DNA from: Candidatus Helarchaeota archaeon
GTDB taxonomy: Archaea > Asgardarchaeota > Lokiarchaeia > Helarchaeales > RDOG01
Length of the DNA stretch: 64,000 bases
Direction of reading: 5' to 3'
Assembly: GCA_019058315.1 (NCBI GenBank)
Contig: JAHPZH010000002.1
Coordinates: 1,197,910 to 1,261,909, forward strand
The notes under the pieces were generated by a model that worked only from the letters and a program-made list of their open reading frames with translations, was not told where the DNA came from and searched no databases. Shown piece by piece: positions 43,741 to 53,333 of this stretch. The position numbers were made by a program, and so were the translations under genes. Every line of letters starts with the position of its first letter. The stretch's first letter is position 1.

Positions 43741-45453
43741 ATGGACGAAAATATGGATGATAATATAATTAAAGAGGAAGTAAAACCAAAAATAGCTGAC
43801 GAACCTTCAAAAAAACTATCAAAAGAGGCAAGAAAAAAGCTTCGCGAAAAGAAAAGGGCTCAAACTGGTCCTTCAACTAAAATGACTTTATATCTTTGGT
43901 TTGTGCTCATTTTTGCTGGAGTTGTCACATTCTTCGATGGATGGTGTACTTTAGCAATTACTTTAGCTATGGGGGACGTCGGAATACAAGCTAATTTAAT
44001 TGAACAATTAACTAACCGCGGTCTATTCGACTATTTCGGCATTTCAAATAACCCTGTGATGATGGGTATAATTCTGAGCATAGCTGGCAGTGGAGTTGTT
44101 ATGGCAGTTTCATTTAAATATTTTGTGGATAAATATGGACGAAGACCTTTAACTCTTATCACTGCAGTTTGTTTTATTTCATTCTCCGCCTTAACTGGTT
44201 TAACTCCTCCTGGTGATACAGGCCTAATTATTTTTCTTATTTTAAGGATTCTGGCCAATTATTTCTTATCGGCTGATATCGTAACAATAATTATAGCAGA
44301 AGAAGCTCCAGATCATTTGAGAGGAAGATTAATTGGAGTAGTTTTAGCAACAAATACTGTCGGTGGTTTTATCTGTGGGATAATTCAAATGGTTGGAGTA
44401 ACAATAGAGCTACCTGGAGGTTACATTTTAAGTACTTGGCAGTCTTTATTTTTCTTATCCAGCCTTGGATTTATTTTCATAATTCCCATGTTCTTTTTCT
44501 TAAAAGAAACTTGGCGATTTGATGGTATGAAGAAATATGAGCAATGGCGAAAGAAAAGGGGGTTAGCCTCAAAAACTGGATGGGCTGTCCCTTTAAGAAG
44601 ACAATATGCGCGTGCCATGATCCTAGGCTGCATTATGGGTTTTCTTATTAACCTCATTTATTTCGCACAAGTCACATTTTTTGGAATTTACTTTGTGAAA
44701 GAATTAAACATGACTTCAAAATTTCTTGGTTTGGCATCGCTTCCATTAATGCTTTCTGCAGGAATTGGATACTATATAGCAGGCCCCTTAATGGATCGTT
44801 GGGGAAGAATTCCTACTATCCATAGATTCGGATGTACAACATTAGTTGGTGGCCTTATTTTTTCATGGCCCACGGTTTTTGTTGTTGGAGGCATTCCAAA
44901 TCCTTTACTTATGGCTCTCGTAATTGGTGGTGGAATGATGGGAATTCTATCACTTACAGTATTAATGACTGCAGCCGTACTTGTTCCGCTGGAAATGTTA
45001 CCAACTCATATTAGAAGTACTGCAATGGGTTGGATGGGAGCAATTGCAAGAGGTGCTATGATTGTATCTCCTTTCTTAATGATGTTCGGTTCTGAAACAT
45101 TAGGTGGTCTAGGACTTACCTATCAAGCCATGTTTGCACTTATGGGTATGCCCTTAACAACTCTATTGTTTTCAGCATATTTATTGGCTCCAGAGAGTAA
45201 AGGAAGAGTATTGGAAGAAATAGTTATGACAGAAATCTATACTAAACAGAAAAGAGTTGATAAAAAAGAATATAGGAGACCATATTATTATTTTGCAATG
45301 GGTATTACATCCTTCTTCTTTACAGGTTTAATTTACGGTAATACTGGTGATGGGATTTTTAAAAGTGTAATATTAATAGTAAGTATTTATAGCATAGTAT
45401 GTCTCGCTTGCTTCTTAATAGTGGTTTGGGCTCGTAATGTTATTTCAGAATAA
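43741..45453 (+). CDS. MFS transporter (paralog 1)
   Basis: VDKYGRRP and MDRWGRIP motif A, AEEAPDHLRG, EMLPTHIRST, APESKGR. Confidence 0.92.
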   Translation: MDENMDDNIIKEEVKPKIADEPSKKLSKEARKKLREKKRAQTGPSTKMTLYLWFVLIFAGVVTFFDGWCTLAITLAMGDVGIQANLIEQLTNRGLFDYFGISNNPVMMGIILSIAGSGVVMAVSFKYFVDKYGRRPLTLITAVCFISFSALTGLTPPGDTGLIIFLILRILANYFLSADIVTIIIAEEAPDHLRGRLIGVVLATNTVGGFICGIIQMVGVTIELPGGYILSTWQSLFFLSSLGFIFIIPMFFFLKETWRFDGMKKYEQWRKKRGLASKTGWAVPLRRQYARAMILGCIMGFLINLIYFAQVTFFGIYFVKELNMTSKFLGLASLPLMLSAGIGYYIAGPLMDRWGRIPTIHRFGCTTLVGGLIFSWPTVFVVGGIPNPLLMALVIGGGMMGILSLTVLMTAAVLVPLEMLPTHIRSTAMGWMGAIARGAMIVSPFLMMFGSETLGGLGLTYQAMFALMGMPLTTLLFSAYLLAPESKGRVLEEIVMTEIYTKQKRVDKKEYRRPYYYFAMGITSFFFTGLIYGNTGDGIFKSVILIVSIYSIVCLACFLIVVWARNVISE

Positions 45454-45483: not shown

Positions 45484-46623
45484 TTATTCAATTTTCTTTT
45501 TTTGATTTGATTCATAATCAAATAATTCTAGACCTTTAAACAATTCCTTATTTAACATTTCACCTTGTTCTTTTAGAAATGTATTCAATGCATTTTCAGG
45601 AATATCTGCAAAACTCATACCCAATTTAGCTTTACCGATAGGGTGTTTACGTCTAATCTTATCATATTCCTGTAATGTTTCCATTGAAAAACTGGAAGCA
45701 TCTACTGCATCAACCGCAATATCAGCTGCCATTGCACCAGAAATTGCTGCTGGAATTATGCCATGATATCCAACTGCATCCCCACAGAGCATTAATCCTG
45801 ATAAAACACCAGTTTTTAAAGCCTCACCGAGCAAAAAAGCGTATAATCCCCCTCTTAAACCAAATTCTTGAGCATTCTTAAGTCGTTTTTTTAATACTGG
45901 ATGATTTTTTTTAACGTTTAAATAATCTTGATATGTTCCAAATCCAACCAGAGCATGCCCTTCTTCATCTAAATTAGATACAAAAGCATTAGCAATATGT
46001 TTATCAAATATAGAGCCAAAAAATATTTCAATTACACCAGGCTCAACATCTTTCATATTTAAGAATTCAACTTGGATACCTGGATAATATTTTCGTTCCT
46101 TTTTCTTGTCATATTTTAAAATTCCAGATTTTTCTGCAATTCCCATCGGAATAGATTTACTACCATCACATCCTATAAGAAGATCAGAGTAAATTTTTTG
46201 AATTTTGCCTTTCCTTTTAGCCACTATTCCTATAATCTTTTCATCTTCTTTAATAAGATCAATTACCTTGGTTCCAATGCTTAATTGAGAACCCGCTTGA
46301 ACTGCTTTCTGCGCAAGAAATTGATCAAATTTCACTCGATCTACAAAATAACCACCATTAAATTTCATTTCATAAGCGAATTCACCTTTAGGAGTCCAAA
46401 CACGCCAGCGATCGACTTTAGTAATGATTTTATCCCTTCCAAATTCATTCACAAGTTTCTCAGTATATGGACATCCATTTAGCCAACCAGAGCAATGAAC
46501 AGGAAGTCCAATTGTTGAGTGTTCTTCGATTAATAAAACACTTAATCCTTTTTCCGCAGTCTTTCTCGCCGCTAAAGAACCAGCAGGTCCAGCACCTACG
46601 ATAATTACCTCAAAATTTTCCAT
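45484..46623 (-). CDS. Geranylgeranyl reductase-family FAD oxidoreductase
   Basis: VIIVGAGPAGS, PVHCSG, DRVKFDQFLA, GCDG, LCGDAVG. Confidence 0.85.
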   Translation of the reverse strand: MENFEVIIVGAGPAGSLAARKTAEKGLSVLLIEEHSTIGLPVHCSGWLNGCPYTEKLVNEFGRDKIITKVDRWRVWTPKGEFAYEMKFNGGYFVDRVKFDQFLAQKAVQAGSQLSIGTKVIDLIKEDEKIIGIVAKRKGKIQKIYSDLLIGCDGSKSIPMGIAEKSGILKYDKKKERKYYPGIQVEFLNMKDVEPGVIEIFFGSIFDKHIANAFVSNLDEEGHALVGFGTYQDYLNVKKNHPVLKKRLKNAQEFGLRGGLYAFLLGEALKTGVLSGLMLCGDAVGYHGIIPAAISGAMAADIAVDAVDASSFSMETLQEYDKIRRKHPIGKAKLGMSFADIPENALNTFLKEQGEMLNKELFKGLELFDYESNQKKKIE

Positions 46624-46721
46624 AATGCTCACAAATTCACTGATCTTCAAATTTAATAGAATTGATATTTAATCTAATTCCGAGATATAAACATTTAAAT
46701 ATGTATAATGTTAAATTTTAC

Positions 46722-46749
46722 TTGAATGTAAAAAATAGTTTACATTCAA
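46722..46749. promoter_or_regulatory. Palindromic operator upstream of the XRE operon
   Basis: Perfect 11-bp inverted repeat TTGAATGTAAA-N6-TTTACATTCAA, between a TTTAAATA TATA-like box and the RBS of the 46787 gene. Confidence 0.75.
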
Positions 46750-46786
46750 AAAATGTTTTACAAAATTAGGAGATGAATGAAGAAAA

Positions 46787-47647
46787 ATGTCTGAAAAATA
46801 TAAAATGGATCAAAAAATCGATAAATCATTGATAACTAAGGAAACTTTCAAAGCATTCATAATAGTAATCTCAATCTGTGCATTAGCATGTTTAATTGCA
46901 TCTTTCGTTATAGCTGGTGCATTTAACGATCCTGAAAACAATCCATTAGGTCATAATCTTCAATATATTTACATTCCAATTATATTAATTATAATTGGTA
47001 CAGTAGGTGTTTCATTACCATTTGTTGTAGTTGTTGTCACACGAGTTTACATGGGTAAGTATGTAAGCAGTTTTAAATACAAGTTGACCAATTCTGCAAT
47101 AGAGATTCGCCAAGGTGTGTTCACAAAGAATAAAGTCACCATACCTTATTCACGTGTTCAAAATATTAATGTCGTGAATGGTATCTTCGATAGAATTTTT
47201 GGACTTTATACCGTTTTAATAGAAACGGCTGGTATTTCAGGAGTACAAGCACAAGGAGGTAAAATCGGAAGACCTGAGGGTTATTTACCTGGATTAAAAA
47301 ATCCACATGAATTCGAAGCAGAATTAAAACAAATGTTAGACAAGTATAATGTGTTACCATCGGGATTAGAAGAAAAAATCTTCAAGCCTCAAGAATTAGC
47401 CTTTGATAATTTTATCTCTTATATACTTAGCAAAATGAGAGATAGAGATGATTTATTAAAAACGAATGTTAAAGACCTCAGGGAAAAACAAAAAATAACC
47501 TCAATAGAGCTTGCAGCAAAAATAGGAGTTAAAAACGAAACTATAGAACTTTTAGAAGCAGGAAGATACACGCCTTCATTAAGTTTGGCGTATAAAATTG
47601 CTAAAGAATTAAAATGCAAAATAGAAGACCTATTTCAATTCGATTAA
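46787..47647 (+). CDS. 2-TM + bacterial-type PH domain (bPH_2/YdbS-like) + C-terminal XRE HTH fusion
   Basis: Two TM helices; YKLT..AIEIRQGVF....TIPYSRVQNINV..GIFDRIFGLYTVLIETAG (bPH_2); VKDLREKQKITSIELAAKIGV...LEAGRYTPSLSLAYKIAKELKCKIEDLF (HTH_3). Confidence 0.88.
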   Translation: MSEKYKMDQKIDKSLITKETFKAFIIVISICALACLIASFVIAGAFNDPENNPLGHNLQYIYIPIILIIIGTVGVSLPFVVVVVTRVYMGKYVSSFKYKLTNSAIEIRQGVFTKNKVTIPYSRVQNINVVNGIFDRIFGLYTVLIETAGISGVQAQGGKIGRPEGYLPGLKNPHEFEAELKQMLDKYNVLPSGLEEKIFKPQELAFDNFISYILSKMRDRDDLLKTNVKDLREKQKITSIELAAKIGVKNETIELLEAGRYTPSLSLAYKIAKELKCKIEDLFQFD

Positions 47648-47687
47648 ATATTTTTTTAATATTTTAAAATAATAAAATGGTGCAATT

Positions 47688-48074
47688 GTGAGATTAAAAA
47701 CAAAATTAGTTTCCAAAATTAAGGAATTACGGGCGGAGAGTGACATTACTCAAGAAAAATTAGCTGAAGAAGTTGGTGTCACTCGCCAAACTATTTCCTA
47801 TTTGGAGAAAGGCGAATATAATCCCTCTCTAAAAATTGCTCATGATATTGCACAATATTTTGGAAAATCAGTGGATGATGTTTTTACATATGAAACAGTA
47901 TTAACTATTAAAAGAGAACAATTTAATCTCACTCTTGAACAATTAGCCACCCTGATTGGTATCAAAATTGAAGAATTAGAAAAATTAGTAAATGAGGAAT
48001 ATCAAAATCCTCCAGAATTTTTGAAAAAAATAGCAAAACAATTAAATTGTAAAATCGAGGATTTGGTTGAGTAA
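47688..48074 (+). CDS. Tandem double XRE/Cro HTH regulator
   Basis: IKELRAESDITQEKLAEEVGVTRQTISYLEKGEYNPSL plus a second KREQFNLTLEQLATLIGI...KIAKQLNCKIEDL. Confidence 0.92.
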   Translation: MRLKTKLVSKIKELRAESDITQEKLAEEVGVTRQTISYLEKGEYNPSLKIAHDIAQYFGKSVDDVFTYETVLTIKREQFNLTLEQLATLIGIKIEELEKLVNEEYQNPPEFLKKIAKQLNCKIEDLVE

Positions 48075-48105: not shown

Positions 48106-49209
48106 GTGAATCATTTGGATAAACTAAATGAGTTTTTTGCCAAAAAATGGGCATTACCCCTATTATATTTTGTTTTAATTATTTTAAACGTGATCTTTCC
48201 TCCTATAACATCTAGAGGATATGCTGCTCAGGATACTGGAAGAGTAATATCAAGTTTATTAAATACCTCTATCATTCCTTATGTATGGTTAGCCCCTGTA
48301 TTTCATATTGCGACAATAATTTTAGTAATTATTATTTGGCGTCTAGGGGTCAAAGTAAGTAGAGTTTTTAGTTTATACATTGGTATAAATTATATTTTTA
48401 TAGGTCTTATCCAAAATTTTGGAGAAACATGGGAATTTGGTTTTGTTATATTAATCGGGACTATGATTACAGAATTCATAATAGGATTTTTATGGATATG
48501 GGATGCTTACGATCCTAAAACTGAAAGTAAATTTGAGAAACTTCCACTTTGGAGATATTGGACTATACCATTAGCGATTTTAGCATATTGGTGCCCAATT
48601 AACTCTACACAAAACATGGGACCCTATTTCAACCCACTATTTTTATTGATTTCGCCAGGGTATGGACTTACTTTTTGTATGACAACACCCGTGTTTCTAT
48701 GTATTTTAACCCTTTTCTATCCACATGTAAATAAACCCGCTCTTAAAATAACAGCTTGTGCTGGATTTATTATGGGAGTTTTGAATATGTTTAGTTTGCT
48801 CATCCCTTACACCTTTTGGATGGGTATATTGCATATTCCTTTATTGTCTATCTCAATTTATGTATTCATTTTACCTAAAATAATGAAAAATGAGCCAAAA
48901 ATTGTAAATCAAGAACTTGTAAAAATCCCCCATGTTCAAGGACGTCTTATTGGAGAAGTAAACATAGGTAAGTTAGAAGATTTTTTAATTGCAGAAAAAT
49001 CTACCGAAGGAGTAGAGGTAGGCGATATTGTTGAAATTATTGGGGGACCATTTAAAGGAGAAAAAGCAAAAATCACCCGAGTTGATACAACTGAAGATGT
49101 AGTTATTTTAGTATTATGTGAATCTACTCGCCCGATTCCAATTAAAGTTCATGCAGATTTTATTAAAAAGATAATCAGTAAAGAAAAAAGAAAGCCTGAA
49201 ATGAAATAA
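48106..49209 (+). CDS. Multi-pass membrane protein fused to an Spt5/NusG-type C-terminal KOW domain
   Basis: About 270 aa of TM helices, then IPHVQGRLIGEVNIGKLEDFL...VEVGDIVEIIGGPFKGEKAKITRVDTTEDVVILVLCESTRPIPIKVHADFIKKI. Confidence 0.85.
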   Translation: MNHLDKLNEFFAKKWALPLLYFVLIILNVIFPPITSRGYAAQDTGRVISSLLNTSIIPYVWLAPVFHIATIILVIIIWRLGVKVSRVFSLYIGINYIFIGLIQNFGETWEFGFVILIGTMITEFIIGFLWIWDAYDPKTESKFEKLPLWRYWTIPLAILAYWCPINSTQNMGPYFNPLFLLISPGYGLTFCMTTPVFLCILTLFYPHVNKPALKITACAGFIMGVLNMFSLLIPYTFWMGILHIPLLSISIYVFILPKIMKNEPKIVNQELVKIPHVQGRLIGEVNIGKLEDFLIAEKSTEGVEVGDIVEIIGGPFKGEKAKITRVDTTEDVVILVLCESTRPIPIKVHADFIKKIISKEKRKPEMK

Positions 49210-49243
49210 TTTATTAAAAATCCAGTAAGCATAAGGTCTGGTA

Positions 49244-50935
49244 ATGAAAAAAATTGATAAAATTTCTAATATTAATGAAAAAAAAGCTATTTTACATATT
49301 AAGAAAGAATATTATTTAGATGAAACAGATTTTGAAATTGATAAAGAGGGACGAGTAGTTAAACTTCGATTACTAGAAAAATGGTTTGAAATTGCACCTG
49401 AAATTATAGGAAAACTCACTCATTTAGAAGAATTAGACCTTCAAAATAATGATTATTTTTATCCCCCAGAAGATGTTGATTCAAAAATTGGAAATTTAGA
49501 AAATCTTACCAAATTAAAAAAATTAAACCTCCATTTTAATTATCTTAAAAAAATTGAAGGTTTAGCGAATCTCTCTAATTTAAGAGAATTAGATCTTCAT
49601 ATGAATAAAATTGTAAAAATAGAGAACTTAGAAAATCTTCATAATTTAAATCACTTATACCTCTCACATAATCATATTGAAAAAATAGAGGGTTTAGAAA
49701 ATCTCACTCAATTGAAAACTTTAGATTTCGCATATAATCCAATTAAAAAAATAGAAGGATTAGAGAATCTAACTCAACTACAAACTTTAGATTTTATGCA
49801 TAATAAGATAACAAAGATCGAAGGTTTGGAAAATCTCCATAAATTGGAAGATTTAAATTTGTTTGGGAGTGTTATAAAAAAGATAGAAGGCTTAGAGCAC
49901 CTTACTCAATTAAAAAAATTAGATTTATACGGAAAAGAGATTAAAAAGATAGAAGGGTTTGAATGTCTTATTAATTTAGAAACGTTGTATTTATATGGAA
50001 ATCAAATTGAAAAAATTGAGGGGCTTGAGACTCTTTCTAAATTACAGCATCTATCTTTTAATAAAAATAAGATAAAAAAGATTGAAGGTTTAGATAATTT
50101 ATTGGAATTAGAAGGAATAAATATTTCTGAAAATGAAATTATAAAGATCGAGGGATTAGATAATCTCATTAAATTACAAAAATTAGATCTTGCCAGTAAT
50201 AAGATAAAAGAAATTAATGGTTTAAATAAATTAAATCAAGTGGAAGAAATAGACCTTTCCAATAATCAAATCGAAAAAATAATTGGGCCATTAAACCTTT
50301 CTAATTTAAAAATACTAAAAATTAAAAATAATAAGATCAAGCAAATAGAAGGGTTAGAAGAACTAACACAATTAGAGGAATTAGATTTATGTGAAAACAA
50401 AATAACGAATATTATGGGGCTAGACAGACTCGTTCAATTGAAATATTTGAATCTGGATAACAATCTAATCTATATGCTTGAAGGGTTAGATAATCTATCA
50501 AATTTAGAAAGTTTACATATTTCAGACAATAAAATAACAAAGATAGAAGGTTTAGAAAAGCTTAACCAATTAAAAAAATTAATATTAAGCTCTAATCTCA
50601 TTTCTAAAATCGAAGGTTTAGAGAATCTTCCTCAATTAGAAACTTTAACTCTACATTTTAATCAAATTAGAAAGTTGGAAGGATTAGATAATCTTATCCA
50701 TTTAACAGATCTTACCCTTGATTACAATCCTTTGGATGCAGAAGACCAAAAAATAATTAAAGAAGATATAAAAAAAATAATTTCTCATTATAAAAAGAGA
50801 GAAATAAAAGGGCTTGTTAAGCAATTGGAATTATTAAAGGCACAGTCTGAAATAGACGGACTGAATTTAGAAGATTATATTATTTTAAAAAGGAAAATAG
50901 AAAAAATTAGTAAAAAAATAAAAGATTTTAAATAA
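49244..50935 (+). CDS. SDS22-like leucine-rich-repeat protein with C-terminal helical domain
   Basis: About 20 repeats of the 22-aa unit LENLTQLKTLDL..N.IKKIEG. Confidence 0.93.
   Translation: MKKIDKISNINEKKAILHIKKEYYLDETDFEIDKEGRVVKLRLLEKWFEIAPEIIGKLTHLEELDLQNNDYFYPPEDVDSKIGNLENLTKLKKLNLHFNYLKKIEGLANLSNLRELDLHMNKIVKIENLENLHNLNHLYLSHNHIEKIEGLENLTQLKTLDFAYNPIKKIEGLENLTQLQTLDFMHNKITKIEGLENLHKLEDLNLFGSVIKKIEGLEHLTQLKKLDLYGKEIKKIEGFECLINLETLYLYGNQIEKIEGLETLSKLQHLSFNKNKIKKIEGLDNLLELEGINISENEIIKIEGLDNLIKLQKLDLASNKIKEINGLNKLNQVEEIDLSNNQIEKIIGPLNLSNLKILKIKNNKIKQIEGLEELTQLEELDLCENKITNIMGLDRLVQLKYLNLDNNLIYMLEGLDNLSNLESLHISDNKITKIEGLEKLNQLKKLILSSNLISKIEGLENLPQLETLTLHFNQIRKLEGLDNLIHLTDLTLDYNPLDAEDQKIIKEDIKKIISHYKKREIKGLVKQLELLKAQSEIDGLNLEDYIILKRKIEKISKKIKDFK
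49480..50735 (+). repeat. 66-bp coding tandem repeat (LRR units)
   Basis: Recurring AAAAT(A/T/C)GA(A/G)GG(T/G/A)TTAGA(A/T/G)AATCT units at about 66-bp spacing. Confidence 0.8.
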
Positions 50936-51031: not shown

Positions 51032-52738
51032 GTGCATGTGATGAAAGAAAAAGAAAAGACAAAAACTACCGATCTTGAAACTTTTAAAAAATTACCAAAG
51101 GATCAACGCAAGAAAATTCGAGAAAAAAGAAGAATCGAAGCTGGTTTGCCTACAAAAATGACTATATACCTCTGGTTTGTTCTCTTCTTTGCAAGTGTCG
51201 TTACATTTTTCGATGGATGGTGTACTCTCGCAATTACGCTGGCTATGGGAAGTTTTGCTGGAGGAGTAGATTTATTGGAACAATTACTTAATCCTGATCT
51301 TTTTACATATTTTGGATTAACATCTAGTCCGGTTATGATGGGAATTATTCTTTCTATAGCAGGAATTGGAGTCGTAGTTGCCGTTTCTTTTAAATATTTT
51401 GTTGATAAATATGGTCGTCGTCCATTAACTCTTATAACTGCAGTTCCGTTTATTACATTCTCAGTTTTAACTGCATTTGTTCCTCCTAGTAGAGAAGGGT
51501 TAATTTTATTTCTTATTTTAAGGATTTGTGCTAACTACTTTCTTTCAGCTGATGTGGTAACTATTATAATAGCGGAAGAATCTCCTAATCATTTGAGAGG
51601 TAGATTGGTTTCAATGGTTCTTGCAATGAATGCAGTTGGGGGGTTTGCTTGTGGAATGATTCAAGCGACGGGAATTAAAATTCCATTCTCTGGTGCTTGG
51701 GGACCAAGTTTAAGTACCTGGCAAAGTTTATTTTTCTTGACGAGTATTGGATATTTATTTATTATTCCACTATTTATCTTCTTAAAAGAAACTAAACGAT
51801 TTGTACAAATGAAAAAATATGAAGAATGGCGAGCAAAAAAAGGATTAAAAGCTAAATCTGGATGGTTTGCACCTTTACAAAAAAAATATGCACGGGGGAT
51901 GGCAACAGGAATGATCGTTGGATTTTTAGCACAATTAATATATTTTGCTCAAGTAACCTTCTTCGCACTCTATTTTGCTAAAGAACAGAATTTAACTCCA
52001 AAGGTGGTAGGAATTGTATCATTACCACTAATGCTTGCAGCAGGAGTAGGTTATTTTGTAGCTGGACCTATATTAGACCGATGGGGAAGACTTCCCACTA
52101 TATATAGATTTGGTTGCACAACTTTAGTAGGAGGTATGGTCTTTTCATGGCCTACAGTCTTTATTGTTGGTGACATTGCCAATCCGTTACTTATGGGCAT
52201 TGTTTTAGCTGGAGGTATGATGGGTATATTCTCTCTAACAATATTAGCTGCTGCAGGAACTATTCTTCCCATGGAAATGTTACCAACTCATATTCGAAGC
52301 ACTGCTATGGGTTGGATCGGTGCTATTTCAAGAGGTGCAACTATTGTGGCTCCTTTCTTAATGATGTATGGGGCGGAAGCATTGGGTGGATTAGGACTTA
52401 CTTATCAAGCTATGTTCGCACTCATGGGAATGCCATTGACAACAATACTGTTTACTGCCTTCCTATTAGCACCTGAAAGTAAGGGAAGAGATTTGGAGGA
52501 AATCGTAGCTACTGAAACTTACTCTAAAATGAAGAAAATATCTGAAAAAGAATACAGAAGACCTTATTACTACTTTGCAATAGCCATCTCTTCATTTTAT
52601 ATTACAGGATTAATTTACGGTAATACCTCTGATGCAAATTTCTTAAATGTATTCATTATCGCGACCTTCTACACGGCGTTATGCTTGGTTTGTTTCATAT
52701 TAGTTATTCTGGTCCGTAGAATAATTACAGAGAAGTAA
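51032..52738 (+). CDS. MFS transporter (paralog 2)
   Basis: Same motifs as the 43741 gene, with long identical peptides. Confidence 0.92.
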   Translation: MHVMKEKEKTKTTDLETFKKLPKDQRKKIREKRRIEAGLPTKMTIYLWFVLFFASVVTFFDGWCTLAITLAMGSFAGGVDLLEQLLNPDLFTYFGLTSSPVMMGIILSIAGIGVVVAVSFKYFVDKYGRRPLTLITAVPFITFSVLTAFVPPSREGLILFLILRICANYFLSADVVTIIIAEESPNHLRGRLVSMVLAMNAVGGFACGMIQATGIKIPFSGAWGPSLSTWQSLFFLTSIGYLFIIPLFIFLKETKRFVQMKKYEEWRAKKGLKAKSGWFAPLQKKYARGMATGMIVGFLAQLIYFAQVTFFALYFAKEQNLTPKVVGIVSLPLMLAAGVGYFVAGPILDRWGRLPTIYRFGCTTLVGGMVFSWPTVFIVGDIANPLLMGIVLAGGMMGIFSLTILAAAGTILPMEMLPTHIRSTAMGWIGAISRGATIVAPFLMMYGAEALGGLGLTYQAMFALMGMPLTTILFTAFLLAPESKGRDLEEIVATETYSKMKKISEKEYRRPYYYFAIAISSFYITGLIYGNTSDANFLNVFIIATFYTALCLVCFILVILVRRIITEK

Positions 52739-52844: not shown

Positions 52845-53321
52845 ATGAATAGCCTGATATTTAAAATGGAACATAAAAATAAACCTGAAAAAGAGCTATA
52901 TATAGAATTGGAAGAAAAAATAAAGAATATAAAAAGAGATAAAAGAGAATTAGCAATACAAATAAAAAATATGGAAACCTATTTAATAACATTATTTAAA
53001 AAATATGAATTAATCGAGGAGAAAATAGCAGCACGTAAATTAAAACTCGATGTAAAGGTCTTATCAAATTTAGAAGAAAAAACAGTGGATTTAGAGAAAG
53101 CAATTGAATTAACTAAAGAACAATATGAACAAACAAATCAAATTATAAATGAGTGTCAAAAAAAGTTAGAAGAAGCACGGGATGAAGGATTACAAGACCT
53201 TATTAAAAGAATTCAATTTCTTCAAGACAAAACTAAAATAAATGGACTTAAATTATCAGATCTAGAGGTTTTAAATAAAGAAATAGATGAAATTTATAAA
53301 AGAATAGAGAAAATTAAATAA
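52845..53321 (+). CDS. Coiled-coil protein with a C-terminal domain shared with the LRR protein
   Basis: Heptad-rich K/E sequence; the last 45 aa align without gaps to the LRR protein C-terminus. Confidence 0.75.
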   Translation: MNSLIFKMEHKNKPEKELYIELEEKIKNIKRDKRELAIQIKNMETYLITLFKKYELIEEKIAARKLKLDVKVLSNLEEKTVDLEKAIELTKEQYEQTNQIINECQKKLEEARDEGLQDLIKRIQFLQDKTKINGLKLSDLEVLNKEIDEIYKRIEKIK

Positions 53322-53333
53322 TTAATTCAAAAA

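Follow-up and report, generated by a model that had tools for sequence, protein, structure and literature searches.

A membrane protein gene of a Helarchaeota archaeon carries an in-frame segment of spt5 that is probably young and of slight function

The window (the whole stretch of DNA analysed here, 64,000 nucleotides long) comes from a Helarchaeota genome of 5.79 Mb (12 contigs, ~30% GC), the proteins of which have their nearest named relatives in Helarchaeota. At 48106–49209 on the forward strand it carries an ORF that is open throughout, begins with a GTG start at 48106, and encodes a 367-residue product in which a multi-pass membrane protein is continued by a segment derived from the archaeal transcription factor Spt5. 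This gene and its neighbours are arranged as follows:

46787–47647, + strand: upstream gene for a membrane bPH_2 protein with a C-terminal XRE helix-turn-helix (domain match; adjoins unfused homologs of the membrane gene at loci L032 and L039)
47688–48074, + strand: upstream gene for a tandem XRE helix-turn-helix protein (domain match; adjoins an unfused homolog at L039 and L040)
48106–49209, + strand: chimeric ORF, a multi-pass membrane protein without family name plus an Spt5-derived tail (367 aa; a second copy of 364 aa is 84% identical)
48106–48891, + strand: membrane domain, residues 1–262, ~8 helices (45 unfused homologs; AlphaFold; Lys/Arg loop pattern; dN/dS)
48892–48897, + strand: left joint, Glu-Pro codons common to the membrane gene end (GAG CCC AAA AT) and to native spt5 codons 54–55 (GAA CCA CAA AT)
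48892–49011, + strand: C-terminal remnant of the NGN domain plus linker, residues 263–302 (TIGR00405 match; no confident fold prediction)
49012–49176, + strand: complete Spt5 KOW domain, residues 303–357 (Pfam KOW match; KOW model; Foldseek)
49192–49215, + strand: right joint, the second Glu-Pro of spt5 (codons 154–155), then the last two codons of the membrane gene, its stop and six bases (15-base comparison with the unfused gene end)
49244–50935, + strand: downstream leucine-rich-repeat (LRR) gene (accompanies the fusion in both genomes; absent at the unfused locus L032)
51032–52738, + strand: MFS transporter gene (directly after the unfused membrane gene in L032; marks the shared gene order)

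The Spt5-derived tail comprises 103 residues from E263 (nt 48892), behind ~261–262 residues of membrane protein. It matches the TIGR00405 Spt5 profile above the profile's cut-off (residues 265–361 against profile positions 49–144 of 145, E = 2.7e-21) and the Pfam KOW family (PF00467; residues 305–334, E = 1.4e-7, 31.5 bits against a cut-off of 22.3). These two HMM matches, together with the open frame, bear out an earlier note on this DNA, which had recognized the C-terminal half of Spt5 in frame after a transmembrane protein; the boundaries given there require revision. Homology had been placed from I274, after ~270 residues, but starts 11 codons earlier, after a membrane part of ~261 residues, and of the NGN domain half is absent (native residues 1–53); the piece that is kept, native residue 54 onward, exceeds the last NGN strand described in the note. 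The genome's intact spt5 (212 aa) is located elsewhere on the same contig (C5), in an ftsZ-secE-spt5-tmk-IF2 context; the tail shares 83% protein identity with it and 87% DNA identity over 311 nt. Judged by its sequence, the product of 48106–49209 is a chimera derived from Spt5 yet is no member of the Spt5 family, because the tail lacks a complete NGN domain (polymerase clamp and Spt4 binding).

An artefact of assembly or binning, a concern with a metagenome-derived genome of 6.6% contamination, is extremely improbable: the tail piece is 13% diverged from native spt5 and is hence no collapsed repeat, the joints are bridged by contigs in two studies, and the same joints occur in an independent Helarchaeota genome, GCA_013375355.1. 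Run X1, which may be the source sample, yielded a contig of 35,954 nt that reads through the left joint with 0 differences; the depth of this contig, 17.3, compares with 18.1–18.3 for the contigs carrying native spt5. In the second study, the left joint is bridged by a contig of run X4 (48805–49040) and the right joint by contigs of X2 and X3 (49045–49321 and 48976–49446), all of them 95–97% alike to the window and with no indels listed; L037 was left out as an independent allele, as it lies 1 base from L038 within the piece and its first 10 bases are adapter-like. The protein from GCA_013375355.1 (NVM05073.1, annotated in NCBI as transcription elongation factor Spt5) was found by cluster look-up, and its gene stands in the same order as in the window, including the LRR and MFS genes. 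As orthologous genes of the two genomes are 78–89% identical in DNA, with dS of 0.35–1.2, the genomes probably represent different species. The fusion is real and common to two species; misassembly, a possibility raised by the earlier note, is excluded by the contigs that span both joints, and the architecture is not unique to this genome.

Against these two fused copies stand 45 unfused membrane homologs. No other NGN-less KOW fusion was present among 92 longer and 79 shorter hits, no match spanning both halves was found in 60 related species genomes (incomplete), and a scan of JGI metagenome contigs did not recover a related locus; the membrane family occurs in two of six other genomes of the order (incomplete genomes), unfused in both. 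Limited literature searches found no report of a membrane–KOW or Asgard Spt5 fusion, or of a membrane-anchored NusG/Spt5 domain, and a scan of the genome's proteins turned up no distant chimera of any low-copy gene other than spt5. A contig from a close relative (P0056; ENA ERZ23498365, 202–453) contains an 83-residue gene with a hit to Spt5-NGN only, directly upstream of a full spt5.

The unfused members of the membrane family span 210–339 residues, none with a KOW hit. AlphaFold predicts the membrane domain as a helical bundle (pLDDT mostly >90), and Lys/Arg residues alternate between its loops, a pattern by which both ends of the domain are probably inside the cell and the C-terminus cytoplasmic. 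There is no Pfam model for the family: all 39 members tested failed to match DUF6064 (PF19540) at E up to 0.1, and the likeness to DUF6064, which serves as a lead only, is one of shape with a single cluster where 11% of the members have that domain. Fold searches of residues 1–261 against the PDB gave no clear match (best Z 5.7, a value that unrelated helical bundles also reach), and three ESM Atlas clusters of ‘hypothetical protein’ resemble the domain with TM-scores of 0.87–0.91 and feature scores of 0.96–0.97; the other members found of this cluster family have 210–339 residues and, unlike the chimera, no KOW. Four members of the membrane family (P0004, P0006, P0009 and P0010, one labelled Freyarchaeota) have ~47 mostly hydrophobic extra residues in the loop behind the fifth helix (family alignment columns 225–275).

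At locus L032 (GCA_048887025.1), the membrane gene is 85% identical, unfused and followed directly by the MFS gene; in a Helarchaeota relative at 55% identity, the bPH2-HTH, tandem HTH and unfused membrane genes occur together, and more distant members of the membrane family have unrelated neighbour genes. Because relatives at 85% and 55% identity keep the operon with an unfused gene, this distribution makes the operon the older element and the tail a late addition to it. We considered whether the genes form a conserved membrane-tethered transcription operon with the KOW domain as a part, and rejected the idea, as the other three genes occur without the tail. A sigma-70 promoter scan returned matches at chance level, the sigma-70 model being unsuited to archaea.

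The surroundings of the operon have a complex history of their own. The stretch at 45484–48074 is a mosaic, in which the bPH2-HTH gene groups this genome with L038 and the HTH gene groups L038 with L032 (dS 0.25); the HTH gene of L032 is a single-HTH version of 67 aa. Locus L032 is labelled Hodarchaeota, yet its contig is 80–86% DNA-identical to the window, possibly through mis-binning or mislabelling. Two paralogous MFS genes (43741–45453 and 51032–52738), ~70% alike in DNA, flank the operon, and the end of the LRR gene (50850–50935) resembles that of a 158-residue coiled-coil gene (~53237–53323) and other gene ends in the genome (72–75% in DNA).

Chimeric genes may be formed by microhomology-guided insertion or template switching, which leaves short homologies at the joints and restores the target gene's own end. 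The unfused membrane gene ends in Glu-Pro-Lys-Ile-Glu-stop, and native spt5 carries Glu-Pro twice, at codons 54 and 154, a spacing of exactly 100 codons; the spt5-derived part of the fusion begins at the former and ends at the latter. The 15 bases past the right joint match the unfused gene end at 13 positions in the second genome and at 12 in this one (of 4848 gene ends in this genome, 15, or 0.3%, match equally well at 13/15 and 64 at 12/15), and the stop codon that closes the chimera seems to be that of the membrane gene. Both marks of a microhomology insertion, short homology at each joint and the target's own sequence behind the insert, are thus in place. The Glu-Pro codons at both joints, 100 codons apart, together with the regained end of the membrane gene, point to a microhomology-guided in-frame insertion of a 300-bp spt5 segment. 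An internal segment of this length with Glu-Pro pairs at both ends would have been inserted at the near-terminal Glu-Pro of the membrane gene, with a double template switch, or the excision and re-integration of a small circle, as candidate repair routes; since both microhomologies are in frame, the chimera would have been in frame from birth. The earlier note's alternative suggestion of a recent chimera from a partial spt5 duplication is supported by the joints and now has a proposed mechanism. We found no paper on a chimeric gene made by microhomology in archaea.

In the native spt5 of the second genome the first site reads Ala-Pro, and the fused piece of that genome is closer to the native spt5 of this genome (dS 0.41) than to the one beside it in the second genome (dS 0.84); judging from both, the donor resembled this genome's spt5. 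The two fused pieces are closer to each other (dS 0.19) than are the membrane halves (dS 0.60; p = 4e-4), and it is only over the last ~17 membrane codons that the fused alleles form a group to the exclusion of L032. Both results suggest that, after its formation, the new allele was passed from one related species to another by homologous recombination; misbinning in the second genome may be an alternative. Comparison of the genome with itself revealed 29 short duplicated sequences, each diverged and in two copies; several repeat the 3′ end of a gene at a distance of a few kb or less. Diverged direct repeats of gene 3′ ends, 1–4 kb apart, are found on several contigs, for example at C1:101624-101794, C3:491713-491821, C5:9644-9764 and C11:456701-456997, and such 3′-end repeats suggest repeated single-crossover integration of sister-lineage DNA.

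In the AlphaFold model the KOW barrel has pLDDT of 68–81, and residues 266–298 (the NGN remnant) fall below 50. The best Foldseek matches of the KOW model are the archaeal Spt5 structures 9bct_G and 3p8b_B; separately, the linker and KOW match 9bct_G at E = 5.5e-19. Contact with polymerase is made by the NGN domain (10.1101/2024.01.05.574147), and since residues 1–53 are missing the tail should be unable to load on RNA polymerase. The phenylalanine of the KOW GPF motif, which is conserved in the uS10 contact (PMC8116511), is intact in the chimera. The earlier note took it as established that the KOW domain contacts uS10 and termination factors. This holds for FttA, the contact of which with the archaeal KOW has been shown in a termination complex (PMC11616081), but the uS10 contact has been shown for bacterial NusG and is only inferred (PMC8116511) or proposed (PMC8116511, PMC13681488) for archaea. 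Isolated Spt5 KOW cannot stimulate FttA termination (PMC11616081), a result that does not address binding or decoy action.

When the fused KOW was modelled together with the uS10 of this genome, the complex scored 0.39, against 0.00 for the best of three controls, with runs agreeing in at least 91% of contacts and a partner pLDDT of at least 65. In the benchmark for such models, the mark was reached by 51 of 78 solved pairs and 2 of 108 mismatched pairs, and scores of 0.60 or under included only 5 of those 78 solved pairs but all 4 mismatches that passed; the KOW–uS10 score may reflect likeness to the solved NusG–uS10 complex. The rps10 gene (uS10) has a second copy of its last 37 codons just behind the full gene (L050:1364-1477, − strand; G000:C10:98685-98798), which encodes the same residues although 14 of its 114 bases differ, each of them silently; a tRNA-like sequence, probably containing an intron, was noted nearby by eye, and ARAGORN found none.

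Across residues 266–358, every amino-acid difference between the tail and native Spt5 falls on the fusion branch. In branch codon models of both copies after their split, tail dN/dS was 0.27–0.35, compared with 0.005–0.02 for native Spt5 (p < 1e-6) and 0.13–0.15 for the membrane half (tail vs. membrane half, Fisher p = 0.02–0.12); by these estimates constraint on the tail is at least ten-fold below that on native Spt5. The tail value is nevertheless below 1 (p = 0.003–0.017, both copies), so that the comparison with spt5 proposed in the earlier note finds the tail not fully neutral, though p weakens to 0.04–0.125 when clustered changes at codons 336–338 are dropped, and a three-lineage test without the second copy did not reject neutrality (p = 0.29). 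Taken singly, the branches give the following values: in this genome tail dN/dS is 0.47–0.57 (p = 0.3–0.4 against 1), and in the second genome 0.09–0.13 (p = 0.007–0.04). Neither stops nor indels interrupt the frame in the two species and in related strains, and neutral simulation gave p ~0.01 for so few replacements combined with no stop (P(no stop) 0.04–0.09). A split estimate (KOW 0.12–0.20, NGN remnant ~1.8) was set aside, as replacement density is equal in the halves and the gap stems from few synonymous sites.

The KOW of this genome's copy carries K330E, E332V, E336V, F338C, H342R and Y352F, with residues 303–329 unaltered; this stretch, which contains the core KOW motif, was chosen post hoc and has 7 synonymous and 0 replacement differences between the copies. 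R278Q, K330E, E332V and E336V hit positions at which 39 Spt5 sequences show 87–95% conservation, and in the last hairpin both copies have changes at F338 and H342; changed sites are not significantly less conserved than random ones (p = 0.16), and beyond 2–3 shared derived residues the two copies have changed at different sites. We infer that the tail is losing its conserved surface residues by drift, most quickly in the lineage of this genome.

We lean, with some but no great assurance, towards the tail being a young, tolerated passenger under weak general selection. The membrane domain would keep its old job in the bPH2-HTH / HTH / membrane operon, and the tail would extend into the cytoplasm, its NGN remnant floppy and its KOW barrel still folded, without engaging polymerase; the selection would be for a foldable, non-sticky tail and possibly also for translation up to the next gene. 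FttA polarity is a sub-idea behind this reading, on which a literature search found no direct paper. Counting against the passenger reading are the frame kept open in two species and related strains, the simulation result, the constraint on the second genome's branch, the stretch at 303–329 with 0 replacements and the weakly supportive uS10 model; moreover, a useful allele would have passed more readily from one species to another. That the tail is instead wholly neutral junk, its frame open by luck, agrees with this genome's branch, which is indistinguishable from neutral, and with the weakening of p once codons 336–338 are left aside; the joint p of ~0.01, the low probability of escaping a stop, the lack of indels and the constrained second branch make it decidedly unlikely.

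The earlier note's other suggestion, a membrane anchor or decoy for ribosomes or expressomes, is poorly supported. Retention of native partners by the KOW domain, which would tether ribosomes (uS10) or the termination nuclease FttA to the membrane or be a decoy for them, is consistent with the domain being complete, predicted to fold and probably cytoplasmic, with the intact GPF phenylalanine (PMC8116511), with purifying selection across the two copies, and with the uS10 complex model, itself perhaps a mere likeness given that NusG–uS10 is a solved complex. The at least ten-fold drop in constraint, the loss of K330, E332, E336 and F338 in this copy (F338 and H342 being changed in both), the tail-less state of most relatives with the same operon, and the only proposed status of the archaeal KOW–uS10 contact (PMC8116511, PMC13681488) leave it unlikely. 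The related idea of a newly evolved tether, in which the captured KOW holds ribosomes (uS10) or FttA at the membrane usefully enough to spread between species, we likewise regard as decidedly unlikely. Co-option of the tail for a new partner (e.g. the LRR protein, the operon's XRE regulators or nucleic acid), with adaptive surface changes, could account for the LRR gene accompanying the fusion in both genomes but missing at the unfused locus, for a fold core left unaltered while surface charges flip, and for the HTH domains in two upstream genes. However, the few derived residues that the two species share are outnumbered by changes at different sites, these are mostly simple Glu/Lys transitions as expected from drift, and the HTH genes predate the tail; such co-option we consider very doubtful.

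Taken together, the fusion is real, narrow in range, well explained in origin and probably slight in function. It offers a snapshot of gene birth in an Asgard lineage, with the donor and the unfused allele readable alongside both joints and two descendants that are diverging. It is also an annotation trap: since it passes the TIGR00405 cut-off and NVM05073.1 bears the label Spt5 in NCBI, it could distort marker-gene trees. Were the KOW still to bind uS10 or FttA, the fusion would be a natural probe of the unproven archaeal link between transcription and translation; because of the selection data, working binding of either partner is unlikely.

Among known systems, archaeal Spt5 (TIGR00405; PDB 9BCT, 3P8B, 4ZN1) is the closest: the linker and KOW of the chimera are a direct copy of it, with a like predicted fold, but the chimera, which is not the Spt5 of the cell, lacks the first 53 NGN residues and the acidic tail, is membrane-bound and is evolving far faster. 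The housekeeping context of archaeal Spt5 (beside secE) and its strong purifying selection are both found for the native gene and neither for the chimeric tail. Like RfaH, LoaP and UpxY, the chimera is a second NusG/Spt5-derived gene besides the housekeeping one; those proteins keep the polymerase-binding site and act on elongating polymerase (PMC7819879), whereas the chimera has lost half of that domain and, unlike them, is confined to two known species. Profiles of specialised NusG paralogs gave only weak scores in its KOW region, far below cut-offs. Compared with other microhomology chimeras, this one has taken its insert from the gene of a universal core transcription factor and carries it within that of a membrane protein; a young chimeric gene is a known kind of thing, and the pairing of spt5 as donor with a membrane protein as recipient is new.
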